64,000 bases of DNA from Candidatus Poribacteria bacterium (GCA_965232115.1 OZ246958.1:960076-1024075), one strand, 5' to 3'. Counted from the first letter of the stretch, positions 20,766 to 36,309 are shown. Translations and numbers: made by a program. The notes: generated by a model from the letters alone, not told the origin.

Positions 20766-21413
20766 CTATGATGCCGCTGCCCATTTTACCCCTTGGGTAA
20801 GAAATTTCTGCATACCTTCGCGCTCAAATGTTCCGGGTCCGTGTCCCAAGGTGGTGTAAAAGACGCGTCCAGAACCGTAAGGCTTTACCCACGCCATGGG
20901 GTGTGCTTTACCGAACCATTCGGCGGATGCCAAGACATGGATGTGCGGATCGTGTGCGGAGATATAGATTTCATCTTCTACATCGAAATCTTCAACGCCT
21001 TGTGTCGTTGGGTGCGCGTTATCCTCGATATGGACAGTAAAGGTTGAGCCGGGTGGATGCCAATTGGACGCACCCCCGATGAGGTCCATTGCCTGACCGC
21101 CGATCCACCATGCGGTGCCGTGGATTCCGACCAACCCTTTGCCTTCACTGACGAATTGGAACAAGCCTTCTTCTTCAGCGGGGGCTAAATCGGAAACACG
21201 CTCGACAGATCCGTCTTCTCGGCGTTCCGTACGCGTGAAGCCTGTACCAAAGACGCAGGCATCGTAGGTGTTCAAGTCAGGTGATGCTAAGATCCCTTTG
21301 TCCTCGGTGAGCGTTGTTGCAATATCGGCATCTTTAGAAAGAAAATCGTGAATGACCTCGGCACTTGCATTAAAGCGGTGATTTTCGCCTGATAGCACGA
21401 GAATTTTCGACAT
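20766..21413 (-). CDS. ThuA-like (type-1 glutamine amidotransferase-like) protein
   Basis: The start is at MSKILVLSG with an AAGGAGG Shine-Dalgarno sequence. HPMAWVKPYGSGRVFYTTLGHG is typical of ThuA. Confidence 0.7.
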   Translation of the reverse strand: MSKILVLSGENHRFNASAEVIHDFLSKDADIATTLTEDKGILASPDLNTYDACVFGTGFTRTERREDGSVERVSDLAPAEEEGLFQFVSEGKGLVGIHGTAWWIGGQAMDLIGGASNWHPPGSTFTVHIEDNAHPTTQGVEDFDVEDEIYISAHDPHIHVLASAEWFGKAHPMAWVKPYGSGRVFYTTLGHGPGTFEREGMQKFLTQGVKWAAAS

Positions 21414-21654
21414 AAGAGCCTCCTTTAGAAACGGCACTGAATCCGCCGCTTACGGTGAAAAAATTTAACCTTAAAACGCCACTTTGCGCACATAGTGTAA
21501 CGCAAAATTGAAATTGTGTCAAACCAATTCTGTCGACCGTCGCGAGCATGAAGAAATCCGCAGAAATACCCTATCAAAGATCCCAAGCAATACGCAGAAA
21601 CATCCAAGCAAAAATATTCGCTTCTACAGAAGGCGGATGTTTAAAAAAGATTTT

Positions 21655-21683
21655 TTGACAATAATATGGCATCGTGGTAAAAT
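21655..21683 (+). promoter_or_regulatory. Sigma70-like promoter (TTGACA-17 nt-TAAAAT) upstream of the helicase-nuclease gene
   Basis: Near-consensus -35 and -10 hexamers are seen in an AT-rich 270-bp intergenic region. An AAGGA-type ribosome-binding site sits before the ATG at 21708. Confidence 0.35.
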
Positions 21684-21707
21684 CAAGGAAAAAAGGGATA
21701 ATTCTAA

Positions 21708-24700
21708 ATGCCCCGCATTTTCGATAATATTGACCAACCGTTACTGCCTGCCCTCCAACAAACTCTTGAAACTGCTACACATGCCGACTTTTGCGTCGGT
21801 TATTTCAACCTCCGGGGATGGAGAGGGCTCGGCTCTTACATCCAAAATTGGAGGGGTGGCGATGGTGAATGTTGTCGTCTACTCGTCGGCATGCAGCGAC
21901 TGCCTGAAGATGAACTTCGCGAAGCCAAACGACTTGCTCAGCAGCGCGGTGGAATTGATAACCAAACCGCACTTCGCCTCAAACGTAGATTGGCAGCGGA
22001 GTTCCGCGAACAACTGCCCGTGGGGGTGCCGACACGGACGGACGAAATCGGTTTGCGCCAATTGGCACAGCAGCTTCGCGACGAGAAGGTCAAGGTAAAA
22101 CTCTTCCTTCGATACCCGCTTCACGCAAAACTCTATCTCATCTATCGCGCTGACACGATTACGCCAACAGTCGGTTATCTCGGCAGTAGCAACCTGACCC
22201 TGTCTGGGCTTTCACTACAGGGAGAACTTAACATTGACGTTGTTGATGCCGATGCTTGTGAGAAGTTAGCGGATTGGTTTGAAGACCGATGGGAAGATCG
22301 ATGGTGTATTGATATTTCTAAGGAACTGGTCGAAATTATTGAGGAAAGTTGGGCGCGTGAGGCACGCATTCCGCCGTATCATATCTATATCAAAATGGCG
22401 TATCACTTGTCGCAGGAAGCACGCGCCGGGTTAACGGAATTTCAGATTCCTCGTGAATTTCAAGACAAACTCTTTGAATTCCAGACCGCTGCCGTGAAAA
22501 TTGCCGCACATCACCTCAATAGACGCGGTGGTGTACTCATCGGTGATGTTGTCGGTCTCGGTAAGACCCTGATGGGAACTGCACTGGCACGTATACAAGA
22601 AGATGATTATGATCTCGACACACTAATTATATGTCCGAGGAATCTTGTTGATATGTGGGAAAACTATCGGGAGGCATATCGTTTGCGCGGACGGGTTCTC
22701 TCGATTAGCCGAGTCATCAACGATCTCCCGGAACTTCGACGGTATCGACTCGTTATGATTGACGAAAGCCATAACCTCAGGAACCGTGAGGGTAAACGCT
22801 ATCGCGCCATTCAGGAGTATATCCAGCAAAATGAGAGCAAGGTTATCCTCCTTTCGGCAACGCCCTATAATAAAACCTATCTTGATCTCTCTAACCAACT
22901 CCGTCTCTTTGTGGACGAAACTGAGGACCTCGGCATTCGACCGGAACAATACATCAAGGCGTTAGGCGGCGAACTCCAGTTTAGACGGAAGCATCAAAGC
23001 GGTGTCCGAACGCTTTCGGCGTTTGAACAGAGCGAGTATATTGACGATTGGCGGGAATTGATGCGTCGGTATCTCGTGCGCCGTACCCGCAGTTTTATCA
23101 GGGAAAACTATGCCGCAACAGACCCTAAAACAGATAGGAAATTCCTCTCCTTTCCTGATGGCAGGCACTCCTATTTCCCTACACGTCGACCGAAAACCGT
23201 CCAGTTCACGATCGATGACCAAAACCCTGAAGATACCTACGCCCAGCTGTATTCGTCTGCTGTTGTGAACATAATTAGCAATCTCAAGTTAGCGCGATAT
23301 GGACTCGCCAATTACGAGATCAGTGAACATTCATCGGAATCTCTTTCTCAAAATGAGAGGACAATACTGGAAAACCTTTCTCGTGGTGGACAACGGTTAA
23401 TGGGATTTTGCCGAACCAACCTTTTCAAACGCCTGGAAAGTAGTGGGCAAGCGTTCATTCAATCTGTTGATCGGCACATTCTTCGCAATTATATCTTCCT
23501 TCACGCCATTGAGAATGACGAACCGCTACCTATCGGTGGGCAAGATGCCGAAATGCTTGATACCCGGTTTGAAGATAGAGATACCGATGATGCCAATCTT
23601 ATCGTGGATGCTTTTGGTGATGAGGATGATACAGAGATTAATGGGATCGATTCGCCATATAGTGGATATACAGCCGATGCATACAAACAGCGCGCTGCCG
23701 AGATTTATGGGCTTTACGAGACGCGGTATCAAAGCCGATTTAAATGGATCCGTTCAAATCTCTTCCATTCAATGCTTCGCGAAGATCTCACGGATGACGC
23801 GATCGCACTCACTGAAATCTTGAAACAATACGGGACATGGGACCCCGAAAAAGACGTAAAACTTAACGCGCTGCAAAACCTTTTAACCCAGACACACCGT
23901 AAGGAGAAGGTCCTCGTTTTCACCCAGTTCGCGGATACGGTGCAGTATCTGACAGATGCGCTCTCAGAACGCGGCCTCACGCAAATTGCCGCTGCAACCG
24001 GCAGCTCAGCAGATCCGACGGGATTGGCGTGGCGATTCAGTCCTGTGAGCAACGATAAACGGCGTAGAATTAAGCCCCAAGACGAGTTGCGGATACTCAT
24101 CAGCACAGATGTTCTGAGTGAGGGGCAGAATCTGCAAGACTGTTCAATCGTCGTCAACTACGACCTACCGTGGGCTATCATACGCCTTGTGCAGCGCGCG
24201 GGTAGGGTTGACCGGATTGGGCAAACCGCTGAAGAAATTTTATGCTATTCGTTTCTACCCGCCGAAGGTGTAGAACGCATTATTGATTTACGTGGACGCG
24301 TCCGCGCACGCCTCCAGCAGAACAGAGAGGTCATTGGCACGGACGAAGCCTTCTTTGAAGATGACGGTGATGAGGGCAATGAGACAATCGTTAATCTCTA
24401 TAATGAACAGGCAGGTTTGCTTGATGATGAGCAAGATAACGATGTCGATCTCGCCTCTCATGTGTATCAGATTTGGAAAAATGCGATTACGCAGGATCCA
24501 CACTTAGAGAAAGTTATTTCAGAACTTCCTTCTGTCGTTTATTCGACCCGACCGCACGTCCCTAACGATAATGCCCCGGAAGGTGCTCTCGTCTATATCC
24601 GTACAGGGCAAGAAAATGACGCACTTGCATGGATAGACCGGGATGGGCAGAGCGTCACGGAATCCCAATTTGCGATTCTTCAAGCCGCGGCTTGCCAACC

Positions 24701-25112
24701 GGATACTGAAGGACTCCTCCCCCTTGAAGGGCATCACCGTCTCGTAGAAGAAGCCGCGAGGCTAATCGTCTCTGAGGAGCGGTCGGTTGGCGGGCAACTT
24801 GGACGACCATCGGGGGCGCGTTTCCGGACTTATGAACGTTTGAAAGATTACGCCTCTGAAGTGGAAGGCTCGTTGTTTGTGGATATGCAGAAACTTGAAA
24901 GAGTCATTCAAGCGATCTACCGGCACCCACTCCGTCAAACAGCAACCGACTCCCTCAATCGCCAACTCCGCAGTGGTGTCTCCAATGAAGACCTCGCAGC
25001 ACGCGTTATAGAGTTATGGGAGGACGAGCGACTCTGTATTATTGAGGAAGAACGCCAAACACGAGAACCACAGATCGTTTGCTCGCTGGGACTTCGCGCA
25101 GATGATGCCTAA
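21708..25112 (+). CDS. HKD (PLD-like/NgoFVII-like) nuclease domain fused to SNF2-family helicase, 1134 aa
   Basis: It has a single N-terminal HKD motif (PLHAKLYLIY...GSSNLT). SNF2 motifs are present: VVGLGKTLMG, LVMIDESHNLRN, LLSATPYNKT. The helicase C-terminal domain carries ILISTDVLSEGQNLQD and QRAGRVDRIGQ. Confidence 0.85.
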   Translation: MPRIFDNIDQPLLPALQQTLETATHADFCVGYFNLRGWRGLGSYIQNWRGGDGECCRLLVGMQRLPEDELREAKRLAQQRGGIDNQTALRLKRRLAAEFREQLPVGVPTRTDEIGLRQLAQQLRDEKVKVKLFLRYPLHAKLYLIYRADTITPTVGYLGSSNLTLSGLSLQGELNIDVVDADACEKLADWFEDRWEDRWCIDISKELVEIIEESWAREARIPPYHIYIKMAYHLSQEARAGLTEFQIPREFQDKLFEFQTAAVKIAAHHLNRRGGVLIGDVVGLGKTLMGTALARIQEDDYDLDTLIICPRNLVDMWENYREAYRLRGRVLSISRVINDLPELRRYRLVMIDESHNLRNREGKRYRAIQEYIQQNESKVILLSATPYNKTYLDLSNQLRLFVDETEDLGIRPEQYIKALGGELQFRRKHQSGVRTLSAFEQSEYIDDWRELMRRYLVRRTRSFIRENYAATDPKTDRKFLSFPDGRHSYFPTRRPKTVQFTIDDQNPEDTYAQLYSSAVVNIISNLKLARYGLANYEISEHSSESLSQNERTILENLSRGGQRLMGFCRTNLFKRLESSGQAFIQSVDRHILRNYIFLHAIENDEPLPIGGQDAEMLDTRFEDRDTDDANLIVDAFGDEDDTEINGIDSPYSGYTADAYKQRAAEIYGLYETRYQSRFKWIRSNLFHSMLREDLTDDAIALTEILKQYGTWDPEKDVKLNALQNLLTQTHRKEKVLVFTQFADTVQYLTDALSERGLTQIAAATGSSADPTGLAWRFSPVSNDKRRRIKPQDELRILISTDVLSEGQNLQDCSIVVNYDLPWAIIRLVQRAGRVDRIGQTAEEILCYSFLPAEGVERIIDLRGRVRARLQQNREVIGTDEAFFEDDGDEGNETIVNLYNEQAGLLDDEQDNDVDLASHVYQIWKNAITQDPHLEKVISELPSVVYSTRPHVPNDNAPEGALVYIRTGQENDALAWIDRDGQSVTESQFAILQAAACQPDTEGLLPLEGHHRLVEEAARLIVSEERSVGGQLGRPSGARFRTYERLKDYASEVEGSLFVDMQKLERVIQAIYRHPLRQTATDSLNRQLRSGVSNEDLAARVIELWEDERLCIIEEERQTREPQIVCSLGLRADDA

Positions 25113-25222
25113 ACCTGTGTAAGCAGAGGTTTGTAACTTCACCTTCCAAAAAATGTTGAACGCCAATAGGATATCGTATATAATTTGCATAAATCTAATA
25201 TCTTCTCATACGGAGGTTTCCT

Positions 25223-25444
25223 ATGAACTTAACTTCACAAAGCATATTGGAGTCATTCAATCAACTCCCTGAAGTAGAAAAACATGAACTCGCCTCTGAA
25301 ATCATAAGGAGCGTAGTTATGCTAAATTTTCCACCTTTAACAGATGAAGCACTCGCCGAAGTTGCTGATGCTCTTTTCATTGAACACGAAGAGATGGAGG
25401 CAAATGATGCCCAAGCCGAAACGAGGGGAAGTTTGGCTGGTTGA
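25223..25444 (+). CDS. Putative antitoxin (MazE/PemI-like partner), 73 aa
   Basis: It is a small acidic ORF with GGAGG 7 nt upstream of ATG. Its 3' end overlaps the MazF-like gene. Confidence 0.4.
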   Translation: MNLTSQSILESFNQLPEVEKHELASEIIRSVVMLNFPPLTDEALAEVADALFIEHEEMEANDAQAETRGSLAG

Positions 25445-25724
25445 CCTCGGTATGGTTGCAAAAGTTAGACCTTGCCTTGTTATAAGCACTCCTGCTCTTG
25501 TGCAAGACCGCGCCCTTGTTACCGTGGTGACCCATACAACCGCTTCGCGTCGCTCAAGGTTTGAGGTCTTTGTAGAAACAAGATTTCTAAATGCCACTGG
25601 TGTTTTTGACGCACAGAGTTTAATTACTGTCTCAGAAGCGAAATGTTTGAAAAAATTGGGAGATCTTCTGCCCTCCCAATTATCTGCAGTTGAAGATGCA
25701 GTGCGTCAATGGCTAAACCTTTAA
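25404..25724 (+). CDS. MazF/PemK-family endoribonuclease toxin
   Basis: From the internal Met it reads MMPKPKRGEVWLVDLGMVAKVRPCLVIS...VTVVTHTTASRRSRFEVFVE, matching MazF/PemK motifs. Confidence 0.65.
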   Translation: MMPKPKRGEVWLVDLGMVAKVRPCLVISTPALVQDRALVTVVTHTTASRRSRFEVFVETRFLNATGVFDAQSLITVSEAKCLKKLGDLLPSQLSAVEDAVRQWLNL

Positions 25725-25747
25725 CGTTAAGTTAACAGAAAACCCTA

Positions 25748-28700
25748 ATGCTGAACCTCCAAGAAACACGCCAATACCTCAGAGAATCCGACTTTGAAAA
25801 CCTCTTTACACAACAACTCGGTTGGGAGTATCACACCCAAACCCTCAACATCGCAGTAGACGAAACCGAATATCAACTCACCGCAATCGCTGAAAAACGC
25901 GGGGTGATTGTCTTTGAGTGTCCAGCAATTGAAACCGACGGACGCATCCCCGATTACGCCACCCGCCGCAAGATCCAAAAACAGGTCGCCAAATCCGCCC
26001 ACGAACACTTTATCATCTACACCGACGCTGACAAAACCATACAGATATGGCAGTGGGTCAAACGGGAACAAGGCAAACCCGACGCCTGTCGTGAACACCG
26101 CTATAACAGCAACGAACACTCCGGCGAATCCCTCATTCAAAAATTGCGCGATATTGTTTTTACGCTTGACGAAGAAGAGGAACTTGGGCTCTTCGGCGTA
26201 ATAGGAAGAGTTCAGACTGCTTTCGACGTTGAAAAGGTCACCAAAAAATTCTATGACCATTTTAAAAGAGAACATACCGCGTTCCTCAAATTCCTCAAAG
26301 GGGTGCCCGATGATGATATGCAAAAGTGGTATGTCTCTGTAATGCTCAATCGTCTAATGTTCATCTACTTCATTCAGAAGAAAAGTTTCCTTGATAACAA
26401 CGAAAATTATCTGCATGCCAAACTGGTACGGAGCCAAGCGAACGGGACCAACCGATACTACAAAGACTTCCTTTGTCCCCTTTTCTTTGAAGGGTTCGCC
26501 AAGCCAGAAAACGAGCGGAGCAGAGAGATGAAACGTCTGCTCGGCAAAATCCCGTATCTCAACGGCGGTATCTTTCAAAAACATCAACTGGAGACACTTC
26601 ACGGCGAAAACATTGAGATCCCCGACAAGGCATTTGAACAGATTTTCAAATTCTTTGAGCAATACCAGTGGCACCTTGATGACCGTCCGCTACGGAACGA
26701 TAACGAGATTAACCCCGATGTACTTGGTTATATCTTTGAAAAGTACATCAACCAGAAACAGATGGGTGCCTACTACACCAAAGAGGACATCACGGAGTAC
26801 ATCAGCAAAAATACCATCATTCCGTTTCTCTTTGACAAGGCGAGAAAGGCTTGTAAAATCGCATTTGAAGGCGATGCTTCTGTGTGGCAACTCCTGCAAG
26901 ACGACCCTGGCCGCTACATCTACGATGCTGTCAAAAAAGGTGTCAGAGAACAACTCCCACCAGAAATCGCTGCTGGCATCAACGATATTTCCAAACGTAC
27001 CGAGTGGAATGAACTTGCACCCGATAAATACGCCTTACCGACAGAAATTTGGCGCGAGACCGTCGCACGGCAGCAACGTTGTAAAACCCTCCAAGGCAAA
27101 CTCGCAAACGGGGAAATAGACAACATCAACGATCTGATTACCTATAACTTGAACATCCGCCAATTCGCGCAGGATGTCATTGAAAATTGTGAGGGACCTG
27201 AGTTACTCCGCGCCTTCTGGAAATCCATCACTGAGGTGACAATTCTTGATCCTACCTGTGGTTCCGGTGCGTTTCTCTTTGCTGCCTTGAATATCCTTGA
27301 ACCGCTTTATGAGGCGTGTCTTGATCGGATGCAAGTTTTTCTTGACGAGGTACGCGCGGTTTCCGAATCGCGATCCTCCCGTAGATACAGGGACTTCCGC
27401 GAACTCCTTGACCGCATTGAGGAGCATCCGAATCGCAAGTATTTTATCCTCAAATCCATTATCATTAATAACCTCTACGGTGTAGACATCATGGACGAAG
27501 CAGTTGAGATTTGCAAGCTCCGTCTCTTCCTCAAAATGATCGCACAGATTGAGGATGTCCGACGGATTGAACCGCTGCCAGACATCGACTTCAACGTTCA
27601 GGCAGGCAATACCCTTGTCGGCTATGCGACTTATGATGCGGTGGAAAGACCGGAGAAAGGTAGGTTTGATTTTGAGAATGCAATGGTGCGTATTAAAGAA
27701 AAGGCTGAGGACGTGAAAATTCTATTTCAAGAATTTCGCAGACAACAGACAACATTAGGCGGTGCCGTGACACCAGCCGATAAACAGAACTTGCAGAGTA
27801 GACTCCAAGAATTAGAAGATGAACTCAACTTATATCTTGCCGACGAGTATGGCGTTGATCCGAACAAACAATCTGATTACGAAAAGTGGTTGAATTCACA
27901 CAAACCTTTTCACTGGTTTATTGCGTTTTATGGTATTCTCGAAGACGGTGGATTTGATGTGATTATTGGTAACCCGCCGTATAAGGAGTATAGGGAGGTC
28001 AAGAAGCAATACACAGTAAAAGGATACAAGACCGAAGATTGTGGGAATTTGTATCCGATGTCTATTGAAAGGTCTTTCGACTTGAGCAAGGGATCGGTAG
28101 GAATGATTGTTCAACTGCCTTTAGTATGCACCGATCGTATGATTTCAGCACAATCGCTTTTTAAGACTCAAAATAGGAAAAGTTGGTTTGCCAATTTCGA
28201 TGACAGACCCGGAAAACTCTTTGACGATCTTCAGCATATACGAGCTACTATTTTTCTTTCTAAGAAAGAAGTGAATCTGAATACAGCAACAGTGTATTCC
28301 ACGCAATATAAAAGATGGTTCACAGAAACCCGTTCAACTCTGTTTCAAGGAATATTTTATGCAAATATAACGAATATCTGCCTTAAAGGTATATTTCCTA
28401 AGATAGCGGGTTGCGTTGGGAAAAGTATTGTCAACAAACTCAAGAATACAAAGAAAGCCTTTTTGAGTTTTAAGACTGGAAAATTCGCCTGCCGTTTTCA
28501 CAATTCGCCTCAATACTGGATTCGCGCCACCGATTTTGTTCCCTACTTCTGGAATGAACGGGACGGAAAAAAACAGTCCCAGCAAATAAAGGATCTACGT
28601 TTCAGCAAAAAGGAAAACGCCTTTGCGTTTTGCTGCTTACTCAACAGTTCTTTGTTTTATTGGTGGTTTATCATTTCCTCCGATTGCCGACATCTTAATA

Positions 28701-28996
28701 TGAGAGAAATTGTCAATTTTTCTTTTACTCCCGAGAATTTAAATCAGATGCAGTTGATTCAATTGTCCAAAATAACGGAAGAACTAATGGAGGACTATCG
28801 TAAGCACGCAAATCGCAAAGAAACAAACTACAAAACCACTGGTAAAGTAATCTATGATGAGTTTTTTCCCCGTCACTCCAAATCCATCATAGACAAAATT
28901 GACCGTGTGCTTGCCGAACACTACGGCTTCACAGACGAGGAATTGGATTTCATCATCAACTATGATATTAAGTATCGTATGGGGTTAGGAAATTGA
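25748..28996 (+). CDS. Gamma-class N6-adenine DNA methyltransferase with large N- and C-terminal extensions (MmeI/PglX/Eco57I-like), 1082 aa
   Basis: It has motif X-like GAYYTKEDIT, motif I ILDPTCGSGAFLFAAL and motif IV VIIGNPPYKEY. The upstream helix RLMFIYFIQKKSFL resembles the MmeI/PglX family. A long C-terminal target-recognition region follows. Confidence 0.85.
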   Translation: MLNLQETRQYLRESDFENLFTQQLGWEYHTQTLNIAVDETEYQLTAIAEKRGVIVFECPAIETDGRIPDYATRRKIQKQVAKSAHEHFIIYTDADKTIQIWQWVKREQGKPDACREHRYNSNEHSGESLIQKLRDIVFTLDEEEELGLFGVIGRVQTAFDVEKVTKKFYDHFKREHTAFLKFLKGVPDDDMQKWYVSVMLNRLMFIYFIQKKSFLDNNENYLHAKLVRSQANGTNRYYKDFLCPLFFEGFAKPENERSREMKRLLGKIPYLNGGIFQKHQLETLHGENIEIPDKAFEQIFKFFEQYQWHLDDRPLRNDNEINPDVLGYIFEKYINQKQMGAYYTKEDITEYISKNTIIPFLFDKARKACKIAFEGDASVWQLLQDDPGRYIYDAVKKGVREQLPPEIAAGINDISKRTEWNELAPDKYALPTEIWRETVARQQRCKTLQGKLANGEIDNINDLITYNLNIRQFAQDVIENCEGPELLRAFWKSITEVTILDPTCGSGAFLFAALNILEPLYEACLDRMQVFLDEVRAVSESRSSRRYRDFRELLDRIEEHPNRKYFILKSIIINNLYGVDIMDEAVEICKLRLFLKMIAQIEDVRRIEPLPDIDFNVQAGNTLVGYATYDAVERPEKGRFDFENAMVRIKEKAEDVKILFQEFRRQQTTLGGAVTPADKQNLQSRLQELEDELNLYLADEYGVDPNKQSDYEKWLNSHKPFHWFIAFYGILEDGGFDVIIGNPPYKEYREVKKQYTVKGYKTEDCGNLYPMSIERSFDLSKGSVGMIVQLPLVCTDRMISAQSLFKTQNRKSWFANFDDRPGKLFDDLQHIRATIFLSKKEVNLNTATVYSTQYKRWFTETRSTLFQGIFYANITNICLKGIFPKIAGCVGKSIVNKLKNTKKAFLSFKTGKFACRFHNSPQYWIRATDFVPYFWNERDGKKQSQQIKDLRFSKKENAFAFCCLLNSSLFYWWFIISSDCRHLNMREIVNFSFTPENLNQMQLIQLSKITEELMEDYRKHANRKETNYKTTGKVIYDEFFPRHSKSIIDKIDRVLAEHYGFTDEELDFIINYDIKYRMGLGN

Positions 28997-29115
28997 CGAG
29001 GCCAACCGGTAAGGTCATCTAGCGGGGGTCAACACATTCCATATATTTACGGAACAATCGAGTATGTTTAACCCAATGAAGTGCCAACGCTTATTAGGGC
29101 CAGAATTTAGCAAAG

Positions 29116-29958
29116 TTAAGATAAGTTTTGTCTCTCAAATTCGGCTGGAGTCAGATACCCTAACGCCGAGTGAGGACGTTTCTGATGATACACCTGTCTG
29201 ATAAAATGCCCAATGCGGGTTCTCGCTTCATGGATGTCCTGATAGTCGTTGAGACAAACTTCTGCTTCCTTGAGCGTTCGGATCAACCTTTCGGCGTATC
29301 CGTTCTCCCAAGGACACCCGCTGCGCGCTACCGAAATCTGAATACCGTGTGCTTTGAGTATTGAGAGATACGCCTTTGAAAGATACTGCGCGCCTTGATC
29401 GGAATGATGGATCTCTGGAGACCCGCTTTGGTCTAAGGCTGTCTCCAAGGGTTTCAAAGTCAGTGATTGCGTCAAGTGTGGACCCAGATGCCACGCTCTT
29501 ATCATCCGAGTGAAAACATCCATGAGCAAAGCGAGATAGATGAAGCGTCTGTTGAGACGGACGTAGGTAATATCACCGACCCAGACCTGATCGGCTCGAG
29601 AGACTTCAAGCCCCTGAACTCTATTGACCCAGGGGATTTCACCTTCAAGGGATCTCGTGGTTTGACAGGTCCGTTTCACTGATACACACAGGTGTGCTGC
29701 TTTCATCAACCGAGCAATACGTCGATACCCAACGCGGTATCCCATACGCACCAATAACTTCGTGATACGTCGATACCCATACTTTGGATATCGCAGGGCT
29801 AACGCCTCTATTTCCGCTCGGAGCTCGGCTTCAGAAGGGTCGCTTTTCGGTTGATAATAGAACAGGTTCGGGTTGAAACCCAGCACCTGAGAAATCTCTC
29901 GCACCGAATGTTGCGTCCGCAACTTCTCAACGAGGCATCGCTGTTGAGACGGTGTCAC
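29116..29958 (-). CDS. IS3-family transposase OrfB (DDE integrase core)
   Basis: It contains HSDQGAQYLS...ENGYAERLIRTLKEAEV (DDE / rve domain). Confidence 0.8.
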   Translation of the reverse strand: MTPSQQRCLVEKLRTQHSVREISQVLGFNPNLFYYQPKSDPSEAELRAEIEALALRYPKYGYRRITKLLVRMGYRVGYRRIARLMKAAHLCVSVKRTCQTTRSLEGEIPWVNRVQGLEVSRADQVWVGDITYVRLNRRFIYLALLMDVFTRMIRAWHLGPHLTQSLTLKPLETALDQSGSPEIHHSDQGAQYLSKAYLSILKAHGIQISVARSGCPWENGYAERLIRTLKEAEVCLNDYQDIHEARTRIGHFIRQVYHQKRPHSALGYLTPAEFERQNLS

Positions 29959-30240
29959 TCCAAGAAAGTCAATGCTTTTTTTTCGATGTCCATTGCCACG
30001 GCCATTCTCCCAACGAGGCGTTCAAGGTGCGCGATACGCTCAGCATCCTTGCTTGCTTGCTAATCCGTGGAGACAAACAGCGTCGCCACATTTTCAACGA
30101 CTTGCTGCTTCCACTTCGAGAGCTGTTGTTCGCTGAGGTTATGGTGTCTACACAGTTCTGCTTGCGAAGTTTCACCACGGGGTGCCTCAAGCACGACTTC
30201 TGCTTTAAACTCGGGGGTGAAGTTTCTTCGTTTTGCCATC
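29956..30240 (-). pseudogene. IS3 orfA (HTH/leucine-zipper) interrupted by an in-frame TAG
   Basis: It reads MAKRRNFTPEFKAEVVLEAPRGETSQAELCRHHNLSEQQLSKWKQQVVENVATLFVSTD-TAG-QASKDAERIAHLERLVGRMAVAMDIEKKALTFLE, with the amber codon at 30061-30063. The slippery sequence A AAA AAA G is intact downstream. Confidence 0.6.
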
Positions 30241-30409
30241 GGAATGCTCCTTTCAGTAGATTGTTATTCTATCACAATCTTGTTTTAGAGGGTGGCCCTA
30301 ATTCCCGATGGCAGTACACAAGTTGCTACTTACACGATTTTAGACATGCATACCCCGTTTTTTACTCAAAACTGTCGATGATCGAGGCGTTTTGTAGCGC
30401 AAACTGTAT

Positions 30410-30512
30410 GAAGTTTAAGAAAATATTTCGGTAATATTCGATGCGGTTAGGAAACCGCACCTACCGGGTTTGGGGTGAATTAGAATTACCGAATTAATAA
30501 ATTAATCTTCAT
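30410..30512. repeat. MITE-like repeat family A, copy 1 (~103 bp; terminal inverted repeats ATTTCGGTAAT/ATTACCGAAT)
   Basis: It is near-identical (~95%) to 51858-51960. It contains the conserved hairpin GTGCGGTTAGGAAACCGCAC. Confidence 0.5.
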
Positions 30513-30664
30513 TTAGTTTGCGTCTTCAGATGCACAACTTAACAGGTTATGCTACAAACTGGCAACTTGGGTTATGTTTACTGTAAATAATTTAAATTAT
30601 TGCCTCAATTGTCAACTTATGTTAAAATAATTCGTCAAAGTGTATAGAGAAGATAAATTAAACT

Positions 30665-31489
30665 GTGCGAAAACAATTAAGCGAAACAGGTTCTAAACAT
30701 CCAATGAAAACAACACAATCCACCATAATATATGAGAACCCGCCTATTGACGAGATCGTTTGCGGTATACGCTTCGATCCAATTAAGCAGTTACAATCGG
30801 GGCATTTCGGTGTGCTATGGCAAAAGTTCAGAAGCGATTTTCCGATGACCGAAGACCAAATCATAGTGGGGCCTGTGTCCGAAGAAGATTTTGGAAGCCC
30901 TGACAAGTTTCCATTACCAAGGGTCTGGTTCATACACGAAAACGAAAACGGACTTATCCAAGTACAACGGAACCGCTTCCTTCATAATTGGCGAAAAAGA
31001 CGACCAGAGGATAAATATCCGGGTTACGAAAAAGTTGTCGAGGACTTTGAAAAATATCTATTTGGTTTCCAAGAATTTCTGTTAGAGGAAAACTTAGGGA
31101 ATCTTGTACCAAGGGAATACGAATTAACATATATTGACCTCATTCCCAAAGGACACGGGTGGGAAAATCCTGGCAATTTGGAAAATATTTTCCCAAACTT
31201 ATTATCTCTCACAAGACAGGGCATACCTTTAAACAATGTAAGAGGTATCAATTGGCAAACTATCTTAGATTTACCAGGCAGCTTGGGACAGTTAAGAACC
31301 TCAATTCGTAGTGCCCGTCGGATTTCTGACAATCAAGAAGTCCTTCACATGGAATTTAACGCACTAAGTGACCAACCATATCAACCGAGGCAAACCTGGT
31401 TTGAAGATGCACATAATGCAATTACCAACCTTTTTACTTCTCTTGTGAACGACGAAATTCAAGAGAAGTTTTGGGGGCGAAAATCGTGA
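30665..31489 (+). CDS. Hypothetical protein A of the AT-rich three-gene operon (274 aa; GTG start, alternative ATG at 30704)
   Basis: It is a long ORF in a region of lower GC with no recognisable catalytic motif. Its stop overlaps the next start as GTGA. Confidence 0.5.
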   Translation: MRKQLSETGSKHPMKTTQSTIIYENPPIDEIVCGIRFDPIKQLQSGHFGVLWQKFRSDFPMTEDQIIVGPVSEEDFGSPDKFPLPRVWFIHENENGLIQVQRNRFLHNWRKRRPEDKYPGYEKVVEDFEKYLFGFQEFLLEENLGNLVPREYELTYIDLIPKGHGWENPGNLENIFPNLLSLTRQGIPLNNVRGINWQTILDLPGSLGQLRTSIRSARRISDNQEVLHMEFNALSDQPYQPRQTWFEDAHNAITNLFTSLVNDEIQEKFWGRKS

Positions 31490-31938
31490 GAACTCGCTAC
31501 ACACAAGAAGCAACAACAATAAATAGGGATATAGTCTTTCCATCTCTCCATGGTGAAGCGGAAAAGTTGGATATTTTAAAACCTTTCCAGCAAAGCGTGA
31601 AAACAAGGTCTGGATTTGGCACTACTGTAGCAGTAATAGTTGGAAGTGCAATTTTCCTGCTCGGTGAAAGTGGAACATCAGACATCCCAGAACCTTTCGC
31701 GCAAGACCCAAGTGCATCCCTTGAATTAAACTTTGGCGAAAAGATAGAATCTGGCGTAACCCAAGATTTTGCAGATATACGACAGCAACTACCTCCTTTT
31801 CCAGTCTATAATGAAGAGGATATTCTTAACCTGGATGCTGATATAATCACTCCTCGGTGTGAATTTAGCACAATACGAGTTAAATTGATATACGAAGAAC
31901 CAAGTAAACCAACTCCGGTTGAGGATCCTTGGGAATAA
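31486..31938 (+). CDS. Hypothetical protein B (about 150 aa; GTG start overlapping the stop of A)
   Basis: There is a GTGA start/stop overlap. It has a central hydrophobic segment (FGTTVAVIVGSAIFLLG). Confidence 0.45.
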   Translation: MRTRYTQEATTINRDIVFPSLHGEAEKLDILKPFQQSVKTRSGFGTTVAVIVGSAIFLLGESGTSDIPEPFAQDPSASLELNFGEKIESGVTQDFADIRQQLPPFPVYNEEDILNLDADIITPRCEFSTIRVKLIYEEPSKPTPVEDPWE

Positions 31939-31954
31939 TAAACATCTGTTCCTT

Positions 31955-32491
31955 ATGAATATTGTGAAAACAACTTATCCTTGGTATTGTTTGGTAGATA
32001 GTGATGAAATAGAGCAAGGAGATATTCTGGAAGGTTGTCCTATATTTCTTCCACCGGCCAATTTGACCCTAAATTCCTTAGAAGCAAATTTCAGGTTGAC
32101 ACGACGGAATGTGATCGTTATGTCCCAAAGTTGTGATATGGTTAAGGGTAGAGAAAAAATCACCCAGGTCTTGCTCTGCTTTTTATGGAATCGTTCAGAA
32201 TACACACAGGGACATTTAGCTACGAACAAAGGTATGGAAGAAGCACGTAGGGGGCAACTTCCAGCTCATCACCTGCTAAACGAGTGTGAATTACCTAATG
32301 CAGAAAGAGAATTCAGAATTGTTGACTTTCACAATACTTACACGCTTCCGTTAGATTTTTGTAGGGCGTTTGTGGGAGAATCCCAAAATCGTATTCGGTT
32401 GCTCCCTCCATACCGAGAACATCTCTCTCAGGCTTTTGCCCGTTTTTTCATGCGGGTTGGCTTACCTACCGATATTCCCGCGTTCAGATGA
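31955..32491 (+). CDS. Hypothetical protein C (about 178 aa from MNIVKTTYPWYC; possible TTG start at 31919)
   Basis: The ORF ends with TGATAA immediately before the methyltransferase 3' remnant. It has several Cys residues (WYC, EGCP, SQSCD). Confidence 0.45.
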   Translation: MNIVKTTYPWYCLVDSDEIEQGDILEGCPIFLPPANLTLNSLEANFRLTRRNVIVMSQSCDMVKGREKITQVLLCFLWNRSEYTQGHLATNKGMEEARRGQLPAHHLLNECELPNAEREFRIVDFHNTYTLPLDFCRAFVGESQNRIRLLPPYREHLSQAFARFFMRVGLPTDIPAFR

Positions 32492-32521
32492 TAACCCGAT
32501 CTGACCTTGTCCTCGCCCAAC

Positions 32522-32599
32522 CACTACGGCTTCACTGATGAAGAATTAGACTTCATCACCAACTACGACATCAAATATCGGGTGGGTTTAGGGAATTGA
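32522..32599 (+). pseudogene. Remnant of the last 25 codons of a second MmeI/PglX-like methyltransferase gene
   Basis: It translates as HYGFTDEELDFITNYDIKYRVGLGN-stop, compared with HYGFTDEELDFIINYDIKYRMGLGN-stop at 28919-28996. The two are about 83% identical at the nucleotide level, with mostly synonymous differences. Stop codons lie immediately upstream in the same frame. Confidence 0.6.
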
Positions 32600-33081
32600 T
32601 ACGGCTGGTTGTCTAAATCGCGGATTTTACCGCGTTCAGGGACAGCGGCATTGGCTCTACACAGTCGCTAATTACTAATTTATCCAGACAGTTCGCATGG
32701 ATATTTCGTTAATTCTAATTTACCATTTCGTGTTTCACGGAGAGAGGCTATATTGCGTTCCACGGACCCCCTGACCTTAAAAAGATCTCCGTGAATCGCA
32801 TTGAAACCTACCACAGAAAGCATCTTCCTCGGTAGACTAAAGAACGTTGTCCCTTTCCTATCCTGAAAATCCCATAATCCTGCAAATCCTGATTCAGACA
32901 GTATAAATCTAAGTCCTTCCTCCTATAAAATTTCAGAGTAAGCCTTCCGAGAACCTTTCTCCAAAAACCGCCTAAAACTCAGTCCCAGTATGGATTTACA
33001 ATCCTTATTCAAATGTATCACTTTTCAGACTTTACTCTGAAGTACTCTGAAACGCGCTATTTTCTTTTTGGGATTTTTGCT

Positions 33082-33223
33082 AGGGCTATTTAGTTTTAAG
33101 AGTTAAGTTTACCTACATAAAACCTTCCCGTTTCCGGATGCCCGAATGTATTCGGGATAGCACACTTTTCCCGAACAAGTTCGGGCTTCCGGACTCAAAT
33201 TATTGGAAAACTAAATGCCCCTG
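33082..33223. repeat. MITE-like repeat family B (~142 bp; terminal inverted repeats CAGGGCTATTTAGTTTT / AAAACTAAATGCCCCTG)
   Basis: It is homologous to 58772-58903. Internal palindromes are CCCGAATGTATTCGGG and CCCGAACAAGTTCGGG. Confidence 0.5.
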
Positions 33224-33460
33224 GATTTTTACACAATACGGTTGCACGTATTCCCAACTTCTGTTAAAATTGTATGCAAAAGGAGCAGGACTTACGCAAT
33301 TTTGACCGTAATGCATGCTGTGAGATAGGAATTCTTGGACAAACATAAACGTTTGGAAGGCACGGATTGGGAAACCCAACCCCTACACCGGTTATGCTAC
33401 AAAAGAGCAGCATACGTAAGTGCTAAGGAGTCCTAAACATATTGTGAGACCTGAAAAATT

Positions 33461-34843
33461 ATGGAAATCACTGATCTCAAACAATACATTGCACAAGGCG
33501 AAAATGCCACGACCGAATTCAAAGAAAACTTCGATCAGGAAGCCATTGAGACCGCTGCTGCGTTTGCCAATACCGACGGTGGCACTGTTCTTATAGGTGT
33601 GTCTGATAGCGGAGAAATTAGGGGAATTACTATCGGCAAAGAGACCCTAAGAAATTGGTCAAACCGAATTGACCAAGCGACTGAGCCACGGGTGAATATA
33701 GAAGTTGGAGTCGTTGGCGTGGAAGGGAAATTGGTGCTGTGGATACGTGTTGCAGAGTGCTCGATAAAACCTGTCTCTGTTAAAGGACGGTGCTATAAAA
33801 GAGTAGGGAATAGCAACCGCGTCATGTCTCCCCAAGAGATTGCCCAGATGCACCTTGATGCCACTGGACACACCTGGGATGGTCTCTTAGTTACACGCGC
33901 TGGCATGGATGATATAGATGAGAAAAAAGTTGAGTGGTACCTCACCCGTCGAGAGACAATCCGAAATGTGTCTAAACCGCAAGGTATGAGCATGGCAGCA
34001 TTTTTGAAAAACATTAATGGTGTCGGCGATGATGGCACGCCAACCCACGCTGGCCTTCTTTTTTTCAGTAAGCACCCCCAACGCAGATTCTTCTACAACG
34101 CACAATTACGGGTCGTTAGGTTCAAGGGAACATCCGTTCTCCATCCGGTCATTGATCGCGTTGACTGCTTTGAAACCTTATGGGAGAACGTTAATACCGC
34201 TGAGGAATTCATAAGAAGAAACATCCGCCTTCTCAGTTTTCGGACCTCAAGGAGTTTCCAACGCGATGATAAGTTTGAATACCCACTTAATGCACTACGA
34301 GAGGCGATTATCAACGCCTTGATTCATCGCGACTATCAAGAAACCGCGGATGTCCGCGTTTTCATATTTGACAATCGCGTTGAGATCATTAACCCCGGCA
34401 CTTTTCCAGAAGGTGTTAGCCCAGATGAACCGACTCACAAACCGGTGAACCCTACTTTGAGTCAATTCATGTTTGATATTGGTTTTATTGAACGGTACGG
34501 TGCTGGTATCAGAATGATGCGAAGACTCTGTGAGGAGTGGGGAAACAAAGCACCGCGTTATGTATTTCACCCGCTTGAGACGAAAATCATCTTTGATTCC
34601 CCGATTCAAGAGAGCACTTTTATAGAAATCGATGATATTTCAGAGCAGTTGAACGAGCGTCAAAAGAAGGCTCTATTTTATGTAGAAAATAACGGGCAAA
34701 TTGCGACAAAAGAGTACGTAGAGCTCAACAATGTCTCGCGCCGGGTTGCCTATGAGGAACTAAAAAACATGGCTGATAAAGGTTTATTACACGTAATAGG
34801 CAAGGGAAGAGGAACCAAGTACGTACAAAAAGTAAGCGATTAG
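33461..34843 (+). CDS. Schlafen/AlbA_2-like divergent ATPase with HATPase_c_4 and C-terminal HTH (often misannotated as RecG-like)
   Basis: AlbA_2 N-terminus TTEFKENFDQEAIETAAAFANTDGGTVLIGVSDSGEIRGI. The later motif ALREAIINALIHRDY is typical of this family. Confidence 0.8.
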   Translation: MEITDLKQYIAQGENATTEFKENFDQEAIETAAAFANTDGGTVLIGVSDSGEIRGITIGKETLRNWSNRIDQATEPRVNIEVGVVGVEGKLVLWIRVAECSIKPVSVKGRCYKRVGNSNRVMSPQEIAQMHLDATGHTWDGLLVTRAGMDDIDEKKVEWYLTRRETIRNVSKPQGMSMAAFLKNINGVGDDGTPTHAGLLFFSKHPQRRFFYNAQLRVVRFKGTSVLHPVIDRVDCFETLWENVNTAEEFIRRNIRLLSFRTSRSFQRDDKFEYPLNALREAIINALIHRDYQETADVRVFIFDNRVEIINPGTFPEGVSPDEPTHKPVNPTLSQFMFDIGFIERYGAGIRMMRRLCEEWGNKAPRYVFHPLETKIIFDSPIQESTFIEIDDISEQLNERQKKALFYVENNGQIATKEYVELNNVSRRVAYEELKNMADKGLLHVIGKGRGTKYVQKVSD

Positions 34844-34921
34844 GTAAGCGATTAGGTAAGCGATTAAGTGAACGATTCGCACAAGGAGTTATCATAACAG
34901 TTAAGAAACCTTGCGAGTGAA

Positions 34922-35563
34922 GTGATGCAACCCGTTCAAGTTATCAGACGAACAGACACGAATTATCCAGCAGGATTGGAGCGGTATTTAAAAACAGAAA
35001 CTCCAGAAACGATCTGGACACGCGGGAATCTCAACTTGTTACCTGGACAAAACACCGCCTTAAATGGAGACCTCTGGGCACTTTTCTGCTCCAGCAAATG
35101 TCCGGGGGAGATCATCCTAAAAGCACACGACTTGGCACAGGAATTTAGAAAAGCAGGCATCCCAACAATCGGTGGGTATCACTCTCCAGTTGAACAGGAG
35201 TGCCTACGCGTTTTACTGCGTGGTTCACAACCGATCCTCGTTTGCCCTGCAAGGAGTATCGAACGGATGCGACCGAAACCGGCGTGGAAGGATGCATTAT
35301 CCCAAGATCGTCTCTTGATTCTGTCTATTTTCGAGAATCAGGAACGAACGACAGCAGCATTGGCGAACCGGCGCAACGCCTTTGTTGCGGCATTTGCTGA
35401 TAATATCTGTATTGCGCATGCTGCAGCGGATAGTAAAATCTTGGAATTTGCGCAGATGATAATCGCTTGGGGTAAATCTGTTTTCACCTTTGACACACCA
35501 GCAAATGACGCACTTTTTCGACTTGGGGCGCGACGGATTGAACCGTCCCTAAGTGTAAAGTAA
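34922..35563 (+). CDS. DprA/Smf-like Rossmann (SLOG superfamily) protein
   Basis: LFCSSKCPGEII...AGIPTIGGYHSPVEQECLRVLLRGSQPILVCPARSIER resembles the DprA core (..S.GLA.GID..AHR.AL..GG.TIAVL..GLD). The assignment is tentative. Confidence 0.45.
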   Translation: MMQPVQVIRRTDTNYPAGLERYLKTETPETIWTRGNLNLLPGQNTALNGDLWALFCSSKCPGEIILKAHDLAQEFRKAGIPTIGGYHSPVEQECLRVLLRGSQPILVCPARSIERMRPKPAWKDALSQDRLLILSIFENQERTTAALANRRNAFVAAFADNICIAHAAADSKILEFAQMIIAWGKSVFTFDTPANDALFRLGARRIEPSLSVK

Positions 35564-35717
35564 GGATCAATTGTGTAAGACGCACAATTACTTGGACCCT
35601 GACAGTGGATGAGGTGTTTTTGGGAGTTCTCTCCTACAGAAGAAAGATTAGATTTTTTTGACATTTATGTTGGATAATGGTACAATGGAATTAAATTTAA
35701 GAGAGGGACTGGAGTGT

Positions 35718-36260
35718 ATGAAAAAAAGTAGTGTCACGTTAACCCTTGGGCAAATTGCTGCTGGGAGTATTGTTGGGCTATTAGGCGGTTGGATCTGCCT
35801 ATTGGTGTTTGAGAATTTTATTTGGCAAGTGCTACTCGGGGATCGGATTCGCCATGGCTTTTGGGTCGGTTTGCTGCTCCTCATTTCCTTGAGTGTCTGG
35901 TACGCAACGGTGATCATCGGAGCGAGCCAAGGTATCCGTTTTGTGAGTCAAAAATTCGGTGTTAGCATCCCCTTAAAACCGCTTTATTCAGGGGCATTTT
36001 TGGGGCCGCCCGCTGTCGTCGGTTTGCTTGCGCTGCTTAACGTTCCATGGGAGATATTTGGTAGACCGAACCTGATTTTGGCGTTGATCCTTCCGCTGCT
36101 TAAGGCACTGGCGTATGTTATTTCGTTACCCATGCGCGGGTGGGTGTCGTTGGGTTTACCGGTCGAGATTTGGTATATTCTTGCTGTTCCTATCGGCGCG
36201 ATATTCGGATACCGATTGGCAGCATCTGAAAATACCGAAGTCAGCGCGGAACATGGATAA
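35718..36260 (+). CDS. Polytopic membrane protein, hypothetical
   Basis: The start is at MKKSSV with GGAGTG upstream. It has four or more hydrophobic helices. Confidence 0.4.
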   Translation: MKKSSVTLTLGQIAAGSIVGLLGGWICLLVFENFIWQVLLGDRIRHGFWVGLLLLISLSVWYATVIIGASQGIRFVSQKFGVSIPLKPLYSGAFLGPPAVVGLLALLNVPWEIFGRPNLILALILPLLKALAYVISLPMRGWVSLGLPVEIWYILAVPIGAIFGYRLAASENTEVSAEHG

Positions 36261-36309
36261 ATATTAGAAAGGTTATTTTTCATGAACGGTTGCGAAGATC
36301 TAAAAGCGT

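Follow-up and report, generated by a model that had tools for sequence, protein, structure and literature searches.

A predicted restriction-modification-like operon in Candidatus Poribacteria that pairs an HKD-SNF2 helicase-nuclease with an adenine methyltransferase

The 64,000-nucleotide stretch of Candidatus Poribacteria bacterium DNA analyzed here (GCA_965232115.1 OZ246958.1:960076-1024075, called the window below) carries two long open reading frames (ORFs) on its plus strand that would encode a motor-nuclease and a DNA methyltransferase. [quoted passage not shown] By comparison with related loci, the unit is a widespread and strictly conserved restriction-modification (R-M)-like operon, usually with a third gene for a DprA-like protein. 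ORFs of more than 1000 codons with the E-values given below are far beyond chance. The core features, numbered from the first letter of the window, are as follows.

21655-21683, plus strand: sigma-70-like promoter, TTGACA, 17-nt spacer, and TGgTAAAAT with an extended -10 (pattern match only)
21708-25112, plus strand: helicase-nuclease, an HKD (phospholipase D, PLD) domain fused to SNF2, 1134 aa, the proposed restriction effector (Pfam, PADLOC, more than 8000 database homologs)
22053-22292, plus strand: single HKD phospholipase-D-type nuclease domain, aa 116-195, with H139, K141, and N162 (Pfam PLDc_2 and RE_NgoFVII)
22455-24317, plus strand: superfamily 2 (SF2)/SNF2 ATPase core, aa ~250-870 (Pfam, motif alignment, profile search)
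24318-25109, plus strand: C-terminal region of the helicase-nuclease, aa 871-1134 (conserved in homolog alignments)
25748-28996, plus strand: gamma-class N6-adenine DNA methyltransferase, 1082 aa, the proposed modification and specificity subunit (Pfam, PADLOC, homolog alignments)
25748-26152, plus strand: N-terminal alpha/beta domain of the methylase, aa 1-135 (structure model, residue conservation)
27215-28117, plus strand: methyltransferase catalytic region, aa 490-790, with DPTCGSG (motif I) and NPPY (motif IV) (motifs, Pfam, profile search)
28118-28882, plus strand: hypervariable C-terminal region, aa ~791-1045, the proposed target-recognition domain (pairwise identity)
34922-35563, plus strand: DprA-like protein (DNA_processg_A, Rossmann/SLOG), 213 aa, which closes the operon (DNA_processg_A 1e-11)

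The first protein combines two catalytic units in one chain. Pfam places PLDc_2 (1.4e-8, residues 120-195) and RE_NgoFVII (7e-6) within residues 116-195 and also matches SNF2-rel_dom (4e-11), a complete Helicase_C (1.2e-17), and partial ResIII and DEAD fragments. These matches bear out the claimed union of a single-HKD PLD-like nuclease, an SNF2 ATPase, and a helicase C-terminal domain, as do the motifs. Each chain has only one HKD motif, made up of HAKLYL (with H139 and K141) and GSSNLT (159-164), and the SF2 motifs are a Walker A GLGKT (283-287), DESH (352-355), SATP, and motif VI of the form QRxGRxDRxGQ (829-839; QRAGRVDRIGQ in the window). The HKD motif, Walker A, DESH, SATP, and motif VI show no variation across 37 homologs with identities down to 35%. 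An insert of about 330 aa with an acidic stretch lies between the two helicase lobes of the ATPase core. When a family profile was compared with solved structures, RapA, the Sulfolobus SNF2 ATPase (1z63), Rad26, and CSB ranked at the top; the SNF2 assignment therefore stands, and with its SNF2-type motifs and Pfam matches the protein belongs to the SNF2 family of ATPases. Among PADLOC models, the best match is 'C3a139 HKD+Snf2' (8e-53), partial at 178 bits, followed by DrmD (4e-33), PLD_Helicase (4e-27), and HmaA (3e-20, 70 bits). The C-terminal region (aa 871-1134) has no hidden Markov model (HMM) match in Pfam, PADLOC, or NCBIfam, and the same three collections detected no SRA, PUA, or other modification-reader domain anywhere in the protein. 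By analogy to BfiI, Nuc, SauUSI, and MtsD, one HKD motif per chain would require a dimer to complete one active site. An AlphaFold2 (AF2) model of the full helicase-nuclease reaches a predicted local distance difference test score (pLDDT) of 43 and is confident only at about aa 1037-1110; the alignments supplied to AF2 held only homologs of 65-96% identity, which is the probable cause of its poor models. Upstream, the consensus-like promoter described earlier is present as a pattern match (11 of 12 positions) that stops 25 nt short of the ATG. Such sites are not enriched regionally, with 28 found versus 21.5 +/- 4.4 in shuffles.

The second protein is identified as a gamma-class adenine methyltransferase, as had been proposed, by its motif order, with DPTCGSG (501-507) preceding NPPY (742-745), and by Pfam matches to Eco57I (3.7e-23), MmeI_Mtase (7e-9), and DUF7814. 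It too has more than 8000 database relatives, and NPPY and DPxxGSG do not vary among its homologs. For both proteins, many of the top matches lie on contigs of equal length, a sign that the two genes are found on one contig there. A profile search against the PDB found only catalytic cores, namely PglX/BrxX (8c45, 9ewz; 7e-10), TaqI, and, weakly, MmeI (E = 0.035); a single-sequence PDB search with the methylase found nothing. Mean pairwise identity across phyla is 0.55-0.88 over residues 100-750, 0.21-0.30 over residues 800-1050, and 0.72 over the last 30 residues. Identity within the variable region shows no correlation with helicase identity (Spearman -0.03) or with methylase-core identity (0.07). 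Low and uncorrelated identity at residues 800-1050 looks like the pattern of a swappable target-recognition domain, and because this region tracks neither the helicase nor the core, specificity would shift without a change in the nuclease. The helicase-nuclease, by contrast with this region, is conserved and does not track specificity.

PADLOC suggests another label for the methylase, since its REase_MTase_IIG model PDLC03628 spans the protein end to end at 1150 bits. This full-length match favors a rival reading in which the operon is really two independent neighbors, a self-contained Type IIG enzyme and a SauUSI-like, Type IV-like HKD-SNF2 nuclease. The methylase does hold a methyltransferase and a target-recognition region in one polypeptide, as Type IIG enzymes do (Eco57I, MmeI_Mtase, hypervariable C-terminus), and it resembles both the Type IIG enzymes Eco57I and MmeI and the BREX (bacteriophage exclusion) protein PglX/BrxX in its methylase core and its layout of helical region, methyltransferase, and target-recognition domain. 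An endonuclease domain in the same polypeptide appears to be missing. The AF2 model of the full methylase (pLDDT 55.5) is confident only in the N-terminal 135 residues (83-91), which are predicted to adopt an alpha-alpha-beta-beta-beta-alpha-beta-beta-beta-alpha topology; its alpha-beta-beta-beta-alpha-beta order is restriction-endonuclease-like and speaks for the Type IIG label. Residues G25, W26, K50, G52, P68, R73, K75, E86, H87, W101, Q102, and W103 are conserved in this domain, and G25, W26, G52, P68, R73, I76, H87, W101, and W103 are invariant within aa 1-130. Against a nuclease assignment, the homolog alignment has no conserved D...(D/E)xK triad, and 10 diverse methylase members gave no nuclease-family Pfam match (including MmeI_N, HSDR_N, and Mrr) even at E <= 10. 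A Foldseek search with the N-terminal domain returned no PDB match at E <= 0.001. On this evidence the HKD domain appears to be the one nuclease of the core operon whose active site is conserved, and the 'Type IIG' label is not supported at the level of a nuclease domain. As for the other half of the rival reading, SauUSI sets the precedent that PLD-helicase proteins can act alone, whereas the helicase-nuclease lacks a detectable modification reader and a Type IV enzyme, as the neighbor of an active adenine methylase, would defeat itself unless its specificity were a different one.

How the two genes are arranged in other genomes bears most directly on this rival. One genome per species was scanned across 185,579 species-representative genomes, at least 564 of which hold a relative, and the best 80 loci, 60-94% identical to the helicase-nuclease over its full length, were kept with 10-kb flanks. 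Together with the syntenic locus L002, these make 81 non-redundant loci. Of the 81, 76 have a homolog of the window methylase directly downstream and in the same orientation; the median gap is ~35 bp, and the spacings include 8-60 bp and overlaps between stop and start codon, so the claim that the pair forms a module stands. Among the five remaining loci, three are cut off by the contig edge ahead of any methylase sequence, another has an inverted variant, and the last has no methylase. Helicase and methylase-core identities are correlated (Spearman 0.49 over 496 pairs, the pairs not being independent), which is consistent with joint inheritance. Near-obligate, tight pairing across at least 15 phyla and co-inheritance of the core argue against independent neighbors, as does the constant helicase-nuclease partner, which sets the methylase apart from Type IIG enzymes, and we consider that reading unlikely.

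Among the best 80 loci, the closest are from Poribacteria, and the others come from Latescibacterota, Desulfobacterota, Nitrospirota, Nitrospinota, Acidobacteriota, Verrucomicrobiota, Chloroflexota, Bacillota, Planctomycetota, Gemmatimonadota, Armatimonadota, Alpha- and Gammaproteobacteria, and further groups. This distribution is patchy, and with identities of 60-65% between phyla it is consistent with horizontal transfer. Helicase-nuclease homologs occur on 57 plasmids, 23 of them covering at least 80% of the length; no phage record holds a full-length one. In a syntenic relative (L001/L002, 89% identity), the order is nuo genes, ThuA, helicase-nuclease, methylase, purF, and purM, and the pair stands alone between housekeeping genes, with no MazF, insertion sequence (IS) element, or other defense-like gene. 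Pelobacter pPRO1 (PPRO_RS18265/18260) provides another minimal pair, and L010 and L029 exemplify the three-gene type. All-against-all clustering of the ORFs in the 80 loci and their flanks yielded only three conserved real families, those of the helicase, the methylase, and the DprA-like protein. Candidates for hidden core genes, namely a ~1000-aa protein, AAA_15/AAA_21 ATPases, MTaX1-HNH, and RhuM, were each rejected as present in few loci, and none is a DUF499 protein. Two loci have lost parts of the system. On a Poribacteria chromosome (L003, OZ242310.1), the methylase is cut to a 94-aa N-terminal stub (14316-14600), while the helicase-nuclease, at 94% identity the closest genomic relative among the matches listed, keeps all catalytic motifs; this single case agrees with the idea of a nuclease that does no harm once its targeting subunit is gone. 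At the same nuo/ThuA site in the other (L086, 3733-10651), a DDE transposase and IS605 OrfB/TnpB replace the helicase and the methylase; the DprA-like gene survives, together with an AlbA_2 stub and an AAA_15/AAA_21 pair.

The operon had been described as two-component, which does not strictly hold, given that the DprA-like gene is a third member in about two-thirds of loci. Informative for this count are 57 loci, in which the methylase is intact and the sequence beyond it long enough, and 38 of them have a homolog downstream of the methylase in the same orientation. In nine of these 38 it touches or overlaps the stop codon of the methylase (offsets -25 to +4), and in the rest it follows 0.1-5.6 kb on; two loci have it upstream of the helicase. 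For a reciprocal check, three DprA-like homologs were chosen blind to their neighborhood. Two of the three (L087 and L088) lie downstream of a family methylase, L088 at the same purF locus, and the third is the one in L086, a decayed copy of the island. The sole PADLOC match of the protein is to PsyrA (5e-16) and covers the DprA domain only (residues 94-251 of 398). A DprA-like Rossmann protein beside an SF2 helicase in a defense locus recalls PsyrTA and RqlHI, although the match is limited to the DprA domain and the window has neither a phosphoribosyltransferase domain nor a RecQ-type PsyrT by PADLOC; the analogy is speculative.

Comparison with named systems places the operon outside each of them. 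With PLD, SNF2, and N6-adenine methylase domains in one locus, it resembles class-1 DISARM (DrmA, DrmB, DrmC, DrmD, DrmMI), and a further rival takes it for a degenerate or streamlined version in which DrmC, DrmD, and DrmMI are represented and DrmA/DrmB lie elsewhere or were lost. Weak matches to DrmD and DrmMI models fit this idea, the latter a partial PADLOC match of 71 bits to the methylase. The NCBIfam scores are 122.5 bits for DISARM_DrmD against a cut-off of 610 and 77.7 for DrmD_b against 950; the PLD and SNF2 parts are fused here; and the core proteins DrmA and DrmB (DUF1998) are absent. As the first-pass annotation had stated, PADLOC finds no DrmA, DrmB, BrxC, or PglZ-type gene among the 50 large ORFs of the window, and no drmA/drmB or brx genes are conserved in the 80 loci with their flanks. 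The pair also occurs alone in L001/L002. We give this DISARM derivation hardly any credence.

A BREX-like alternative is non-degradative exclusion, in which the methylase would mark self DNA, the SNF2 motor would block replication, and the HKD domain would be structural or regulatory. In its favor, the solved structures nearest to the methylase core are those of PglX/BrxX, and the SNF2 core is RapA-like, as is BrxHII. The NCBIfam BREX_1_MTaseX score of 72 bits is set against a cut-off of 500, and similarity to PglX is limited to the catalytic core; the window methylase also lacks BREX partners, there being no BrxC/PglY ATPase or PglZ phosphatase in the window or in the conserved neighborhood of the 80 loci. 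The H, K, and N of the HKD domain are invariant family-wide, which argues for an active phosphodiesterase, and in the related MANTIS system described below the equivalent substitution abolishes restriction. Exclusion without cutting is quite improbable in our view. NCBIfam gave no family at its cut-off for any protein examined, with DpdE at 95 (cut-off 500) and 'phospholipase D anti-phage protein' at 146 (cut-off 1100) as further examples. Since these scores fall far under the cut-offs and the DISARM and BREX core genes are absent, the operon is neither DISARM nor BREX.

The nearest described relative lies instead in another group. DUF499-centered 'BREX-related' systems have been described, of which Type 2 combines a DUF499 ATPase and a DUF3780 protein with an N6-methylase and with a helicase that has an HKD nuclease at its N-terminus (Rakesh and Krishnan, PMC12839542). 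A 2026 preprint renames this Type 2 system (Gao_RL) MANTIS, with proteins MtsA-D (bioRxiv 10.64898/2026.09.23.753747). It reports that MANTIS hemimethylates 6-bp asymmetric sites, for which MtsA, MtsB, and MtsC are required, and that restriction requires all four proteins, including the HKD histidine of MtsD (H122A abolishes it) and the Walker A lysine. MtsD is a SauUSI-like dimer with one PLD active site that acts downstream of the methylase complex, and full deletion of the methylase (mtsC) is harmless, whereas a catalytically dead methylase is tolerated only with a dead nuclease (bioRxiv 10.64898/2026.09.23.753747). From its description, the PADLOC 'HKD+Snf2' model is inferred to represent MtsD. 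The window system is like MANTIS (Gao_RL, Gao_29) in that both effectors fuse an N-terminal single HKD to an SF2/Swi2-Snf2 ATPase and both systems include an N6-adenine methyltransferase, with short asymmetric sites in the case of MANTIS. The proposed logic is also shared, with a methylase complex that locates the site and a motor-nuclease dimer that cuts. Unlike MANTIS, the locus lacks the DUF499 AAA+ ATPase (MtsA) and DUF3780 protein (MtsB) that define that family: HMM and PADLOC scans found no DUF499-type or AAA+ gene in the window and none is conserved across the 80 loci, and a DUF3780 gene is likewise neither present in the window nor conserved in related loci. The methylase differs as well: it is of the Eco57I/MmeI/PglX type, ~1080 aa long, has a recognition region of its own, and carries NPPY where MtsC has DPPY; the partial 178-bit helicase match indicates a different family, and the DprA-like third gene is found here. 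The HKD-SF2 effector of the Type 2 BREX-related/MANTIS systems, rather than class-1 DISARM as earlier supposed, is thus the nearest described kin.

Other systems resemble the operon in part. Type III R-M enzymes (Mod and Res) share with it a two-gene core, specificity in the methylase, a dependent helicase-nuclease, ATP dependence, and the expectation that asymmetric sites are hemimethylated. This resemblance is functional only, since the parts are not homologous: a gamma-class Eco57I-like methylase takes the place of the beta-class Mod, an SNF2 motor that of the Res type, and an N-terminal HKD that of a C-terminal PD-(D/E)xK nuclease. Hma, a Type 1 BREX-related system, likewise joins an SNF2 helicase-nuclease to a methylase and has operon-internal defense insertions, while differing in its DUF499 ATPase (HmaC), its C-terminal PD-(D/E)xK nuclease, and an HmaA model score of only 70 bits. 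SauUSI, a Type IV enzyme, couples a PLD-family nuclease to an SF2 ATPase and forms dimers structurally similar to those of MtsD; unlike the window protein, it has its own SRA reader and attacks methylated DNA. The same coupling is found in CglI/NgoAVII-type enzymes, where nuclease and helicase are separate proteins rather than one fused chain. We propose that the operon works like the MANTIS/Type III class and is a member of neither. The central idea of the first-pass annotation, that of a streamlined restriction-like module made of a PLD-SNF2 protein and a methylase, holds.

One homolog of the methylase has been studied. Plasmid pSYSX of Synechocystis PCC 6803 (L083) encodes, in order, a helicase-related protein, VapBC, and a 1100-aa DNA methyltransferase. 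The first of these is the helicase-nuclease homolog SGL_RS01585 (WP_011153866.1). This last protein is Slr6050 (M.Ssp6803IV), and it is 49% identical to the window methylase end to end. Hagemann and colleagues tentatively assigned the motif GA(m6A)GGC to Slr6050 as M.Ssp6803IV (PMC6105098). They could not express the protein in E. coli, and the knock-out did not segregate, for which the gene was termed essential; the study is silent on the upstream helicase (PMC6105098). A toxic cognate nuclease is a natural but not the sole explanation for the unsegregated mutant. The claim that the architecture is undescribed therefore stands in part. The searchable literature, which omits many subscription papers and so leaves an earlier description possible, holds no name for the combination of a PLD-SNF2 protein and a methylase with or without DprA, and our search yielded only DUF499-centered systems, Hma, DISARM, and SauUSI; on the other side, Slr6050 has been studied as a methyltransferase and a full-length PADLOC 'Type IIG' model exists.

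Our best reading, to which we assign a probability of roughly 0.6, is an ATP-dependent R-M-like defense operon that follows Type III/MANTIS logic. The variable C-terminal region of the methylase would read a short, probably asymmetric site, and one adenine of that site would be N6-methylated on host DNA. At unmethylated sites on incoming DNA, the bound methylase would recruit or license the HKD-SNF2 protein. Two chains of the latter would dimerize, each contributing its single HKD domain, and so complete one active site for the nuclease. The SNF2 motor would then translocate on or remodel double-stranded DNA with ATP, and cutting would follow. The DprA-like protein may be an accessory, most likely one that binds DNA or a nucleotide and either holds back or licenses the motor-nuclease or else the methylase. 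DprA itself has a DNA-binding Rossmann fold, and this fold, together with the resemblance to PsyrA, is the entire and speculative basis for the suggested role. The MazF cassette, the IS element, a TIGR04255 trio, and probably an AlbA_2 protein would be cargo or accessories in the two junctions between the core genes. The domains, catalytic residues, gene order, hypervariable region, and absence of other core genes are computed observations. The methylation motif and the failed deletion come from a single paper on one homolog. Recruitment, translocation, cleavage, dependence on site orientation, and the part played by the DprA-like protein are what we infer from them.

Several points weigh against this assignment of function. 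Even for MANTIS, cleavage was not reconstituted in vitro (bioRxiv 10.64898/2026.09.23.753747). The full-length AF2 models are both poor (pLDDT 55 for the methylase and 43 for the helicase) and lend no structural support to dimerization or to a methylase-helicase contact. The conserved C-terminal ~260 aa of the helicase-nuclease could be a DNA or modification reader. The DprA-like gene is inessential to the core, because about one-third of loci lack it. Finally, by analogy to MANTIS, the non-segregation of slr6050 fits less well with a methylase that serves as the targeting subunit, since a full knock-out should then be harmless; polar effects or the embedded VapBC could also account for it.

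More tentatively, and with the balance of our judgment still somewhat against it, we suggest that the operon is a distinct family in which an HKD-SNF2 motor-nuclease, a PglX/Eco57I-like methylase as sole source of specificity, and a DprA-like sensor or brake would carry out MANTIS-like restriction without a DUF499/DUF3780 loader, and in which the two gene junctions would be dedicated slots where toxin-antitoxin and other defense cassettes are captured and co-expressed as backup effectors. With carriers among at least 564 of the 185,579 species-representative genomes, the family is a common one, yet pipelines report only an orphan 'Type IIG' enzyme and a 'helicase-related protein', and defense censuses mis-file it. 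RefSeq labels family proteins only as 'helicase-related protein', 'NgoFVII family restriction endonuclease', and 'DNA methyltransferase'. As the minimal form of the HKD-helicase and methylase combination, the operon could reveal which components self/non-self discrimination requires in MANTIS, BREX-related systems, and DISARM, and in what way an SNF2 motor and a metal-independent nuclease are coupled. It may also explain why slr6050 of Synechocystis PCC 6803 proved undeletable. The methylases make up a large untapped pool of new adenine-methylation specificities, and the cargo slots are a possible source of new defense genes.

The genes that lie within the two junctions of the window are listed below.

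25223-25444, plus strand: 73-aa antitoxin-like ORF that overlaps the toxin start, embedded cargo (ORF call)
25344-25724, plus strand: PemK/MazF-family toxin, probable start 25404/25407, cargo in the helicase/methylase junction (Pfam PemK 2.5e-13)
29116-29958, minus strand: IS3-family transposase (rve, HTH_21), 120 bp past the methylase stop and not part of the system (HMM)
30665-32491, plus strand: three-ORF cassette in the methylase/DprA junction, a TIGR04255-family protein of 274 aa followed by proteins of 155 aa and 190 aa (HMM, match in L016)
33461-34843, plus strand: AlbA_2 (Schlafen-like), HATPase_c_4, and winged-helix protein, 460 aa, directly upstream of the DprA-like gene (HMM matches)

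Both junctions are slots that collect toxin-antitoxin and defense cargo, of which the MazF of the window and the VapBC of Synechocystis are instances. Between helicase and methylase, 24 of the 76 paired loci carry 0.3-2.9 kb of inserted DNA (for example L019 13427-16344 and L083 12487-13120), mostly toxin-antitoxin genes (MazE, ParE, AbiEii/AbiEi, PIN/VapC, HicA, PemK) and also small PD-(D/E)xK (PDDEXK_3) proteins. MazEF had been considered as a possible component of the system; it is one of many alternative cassettes at this junction and is absent from L001/L002. The PemK/MazF toxin is supported by its Pfam match, whereas the 73-aa ORF upstream, taken earlier for MazE, has no MazE or other HMM match; a promoter-like site lies upstream of this ORF at 25156-25184. 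The content of the methylase/DprA junction varies by locus and includes AAA_15/AAA_21 ATPases, PIN, MTaX1-HNH, RhuM, DUF3800, YhcG, Fic, and unknown proteins. The TIGR04255 trio recurs inside this junction in another Poribacteria locus (L016 17290-19090) and may be an embedded cassette; its 155-aa and 190-aa ORFs have no HMM match. Frequent insertion of other defense genes within the operon is also described in the literature for Hma systems.

Such cargo bears on one more rival, that of a non-defense epigenetic or DNA-repair module in which the SNF2 ATPase aids methylation or transcription. SNF2 ATPases can drive methyltransferases (Dnmt5), MANTIS methylation requires the ATPase MtsA, and the Synechocystis authors called slr6050 'essential', all of which suit such a module. 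The patchy, transfer-like distribution, plasmid carriage, and hypervariable recognition region speak against it, as do the toxin-antitoxin and defense genes at the junctions, the conserved nuclease motif, and the decay or loss seen at the same chromosomal site in related genomes. We judge a non-defense role to be very unlikely and continue to favor restriction.

The AlbA_2/HATPase_c_4 protein was considered as a fourth core gene and rejected, as it occurs as a separate gene in only ~10 loci, mostly Poribacteria. An AlbA_2 domain is fused to the methylase C-terminus in Nostoc punctiforme pNPUN01 (L084 13078-17103) and in a Chloroflexia locus (L082 13603-17625, minus strand), where the fused methylases are ~1340 aa long and carry the RefSeq label 'RNA-binding domain-containing protein'. 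In sequence terms, these fusions point to a functional link. The protein also matches the PADLOC pAgo model (1e-22) and models of SIR2-associated Argonaute partners, presumably through shared Schlafen-like or DNA-binding domains.

A few smaller features complete the region. No convincing orfA was seen upstream of the IS3 transposase. Neither strand of positions 32492-33460 (~970 bp) has an ORF of at least 60 aa, and Rfam gives no match there at E <= 0.1, so that this stretch could be a decayed gene or a regulatory region; the Rfam scan of 21000-36500 as a whole found nothing. On pSYSX, a minus-strand cluster of ThiF-like E1, E2/UBC, multiubiquitin, and DUF6527 genes (L083 16924-19545) lies beside the system and is followed by an HTH/ImmA pair, which suggests that this neighborhood is a defense island. 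In the window, a strong promoter-like site (35658-35686, plus strand; TTGACA, 17-nt spacer, and TACAAT with an upstream TG, 11 of 12 positions) follows closely on the DprA-like gene, where a 200-aa membrane-like ORF located ahead of purF begins.

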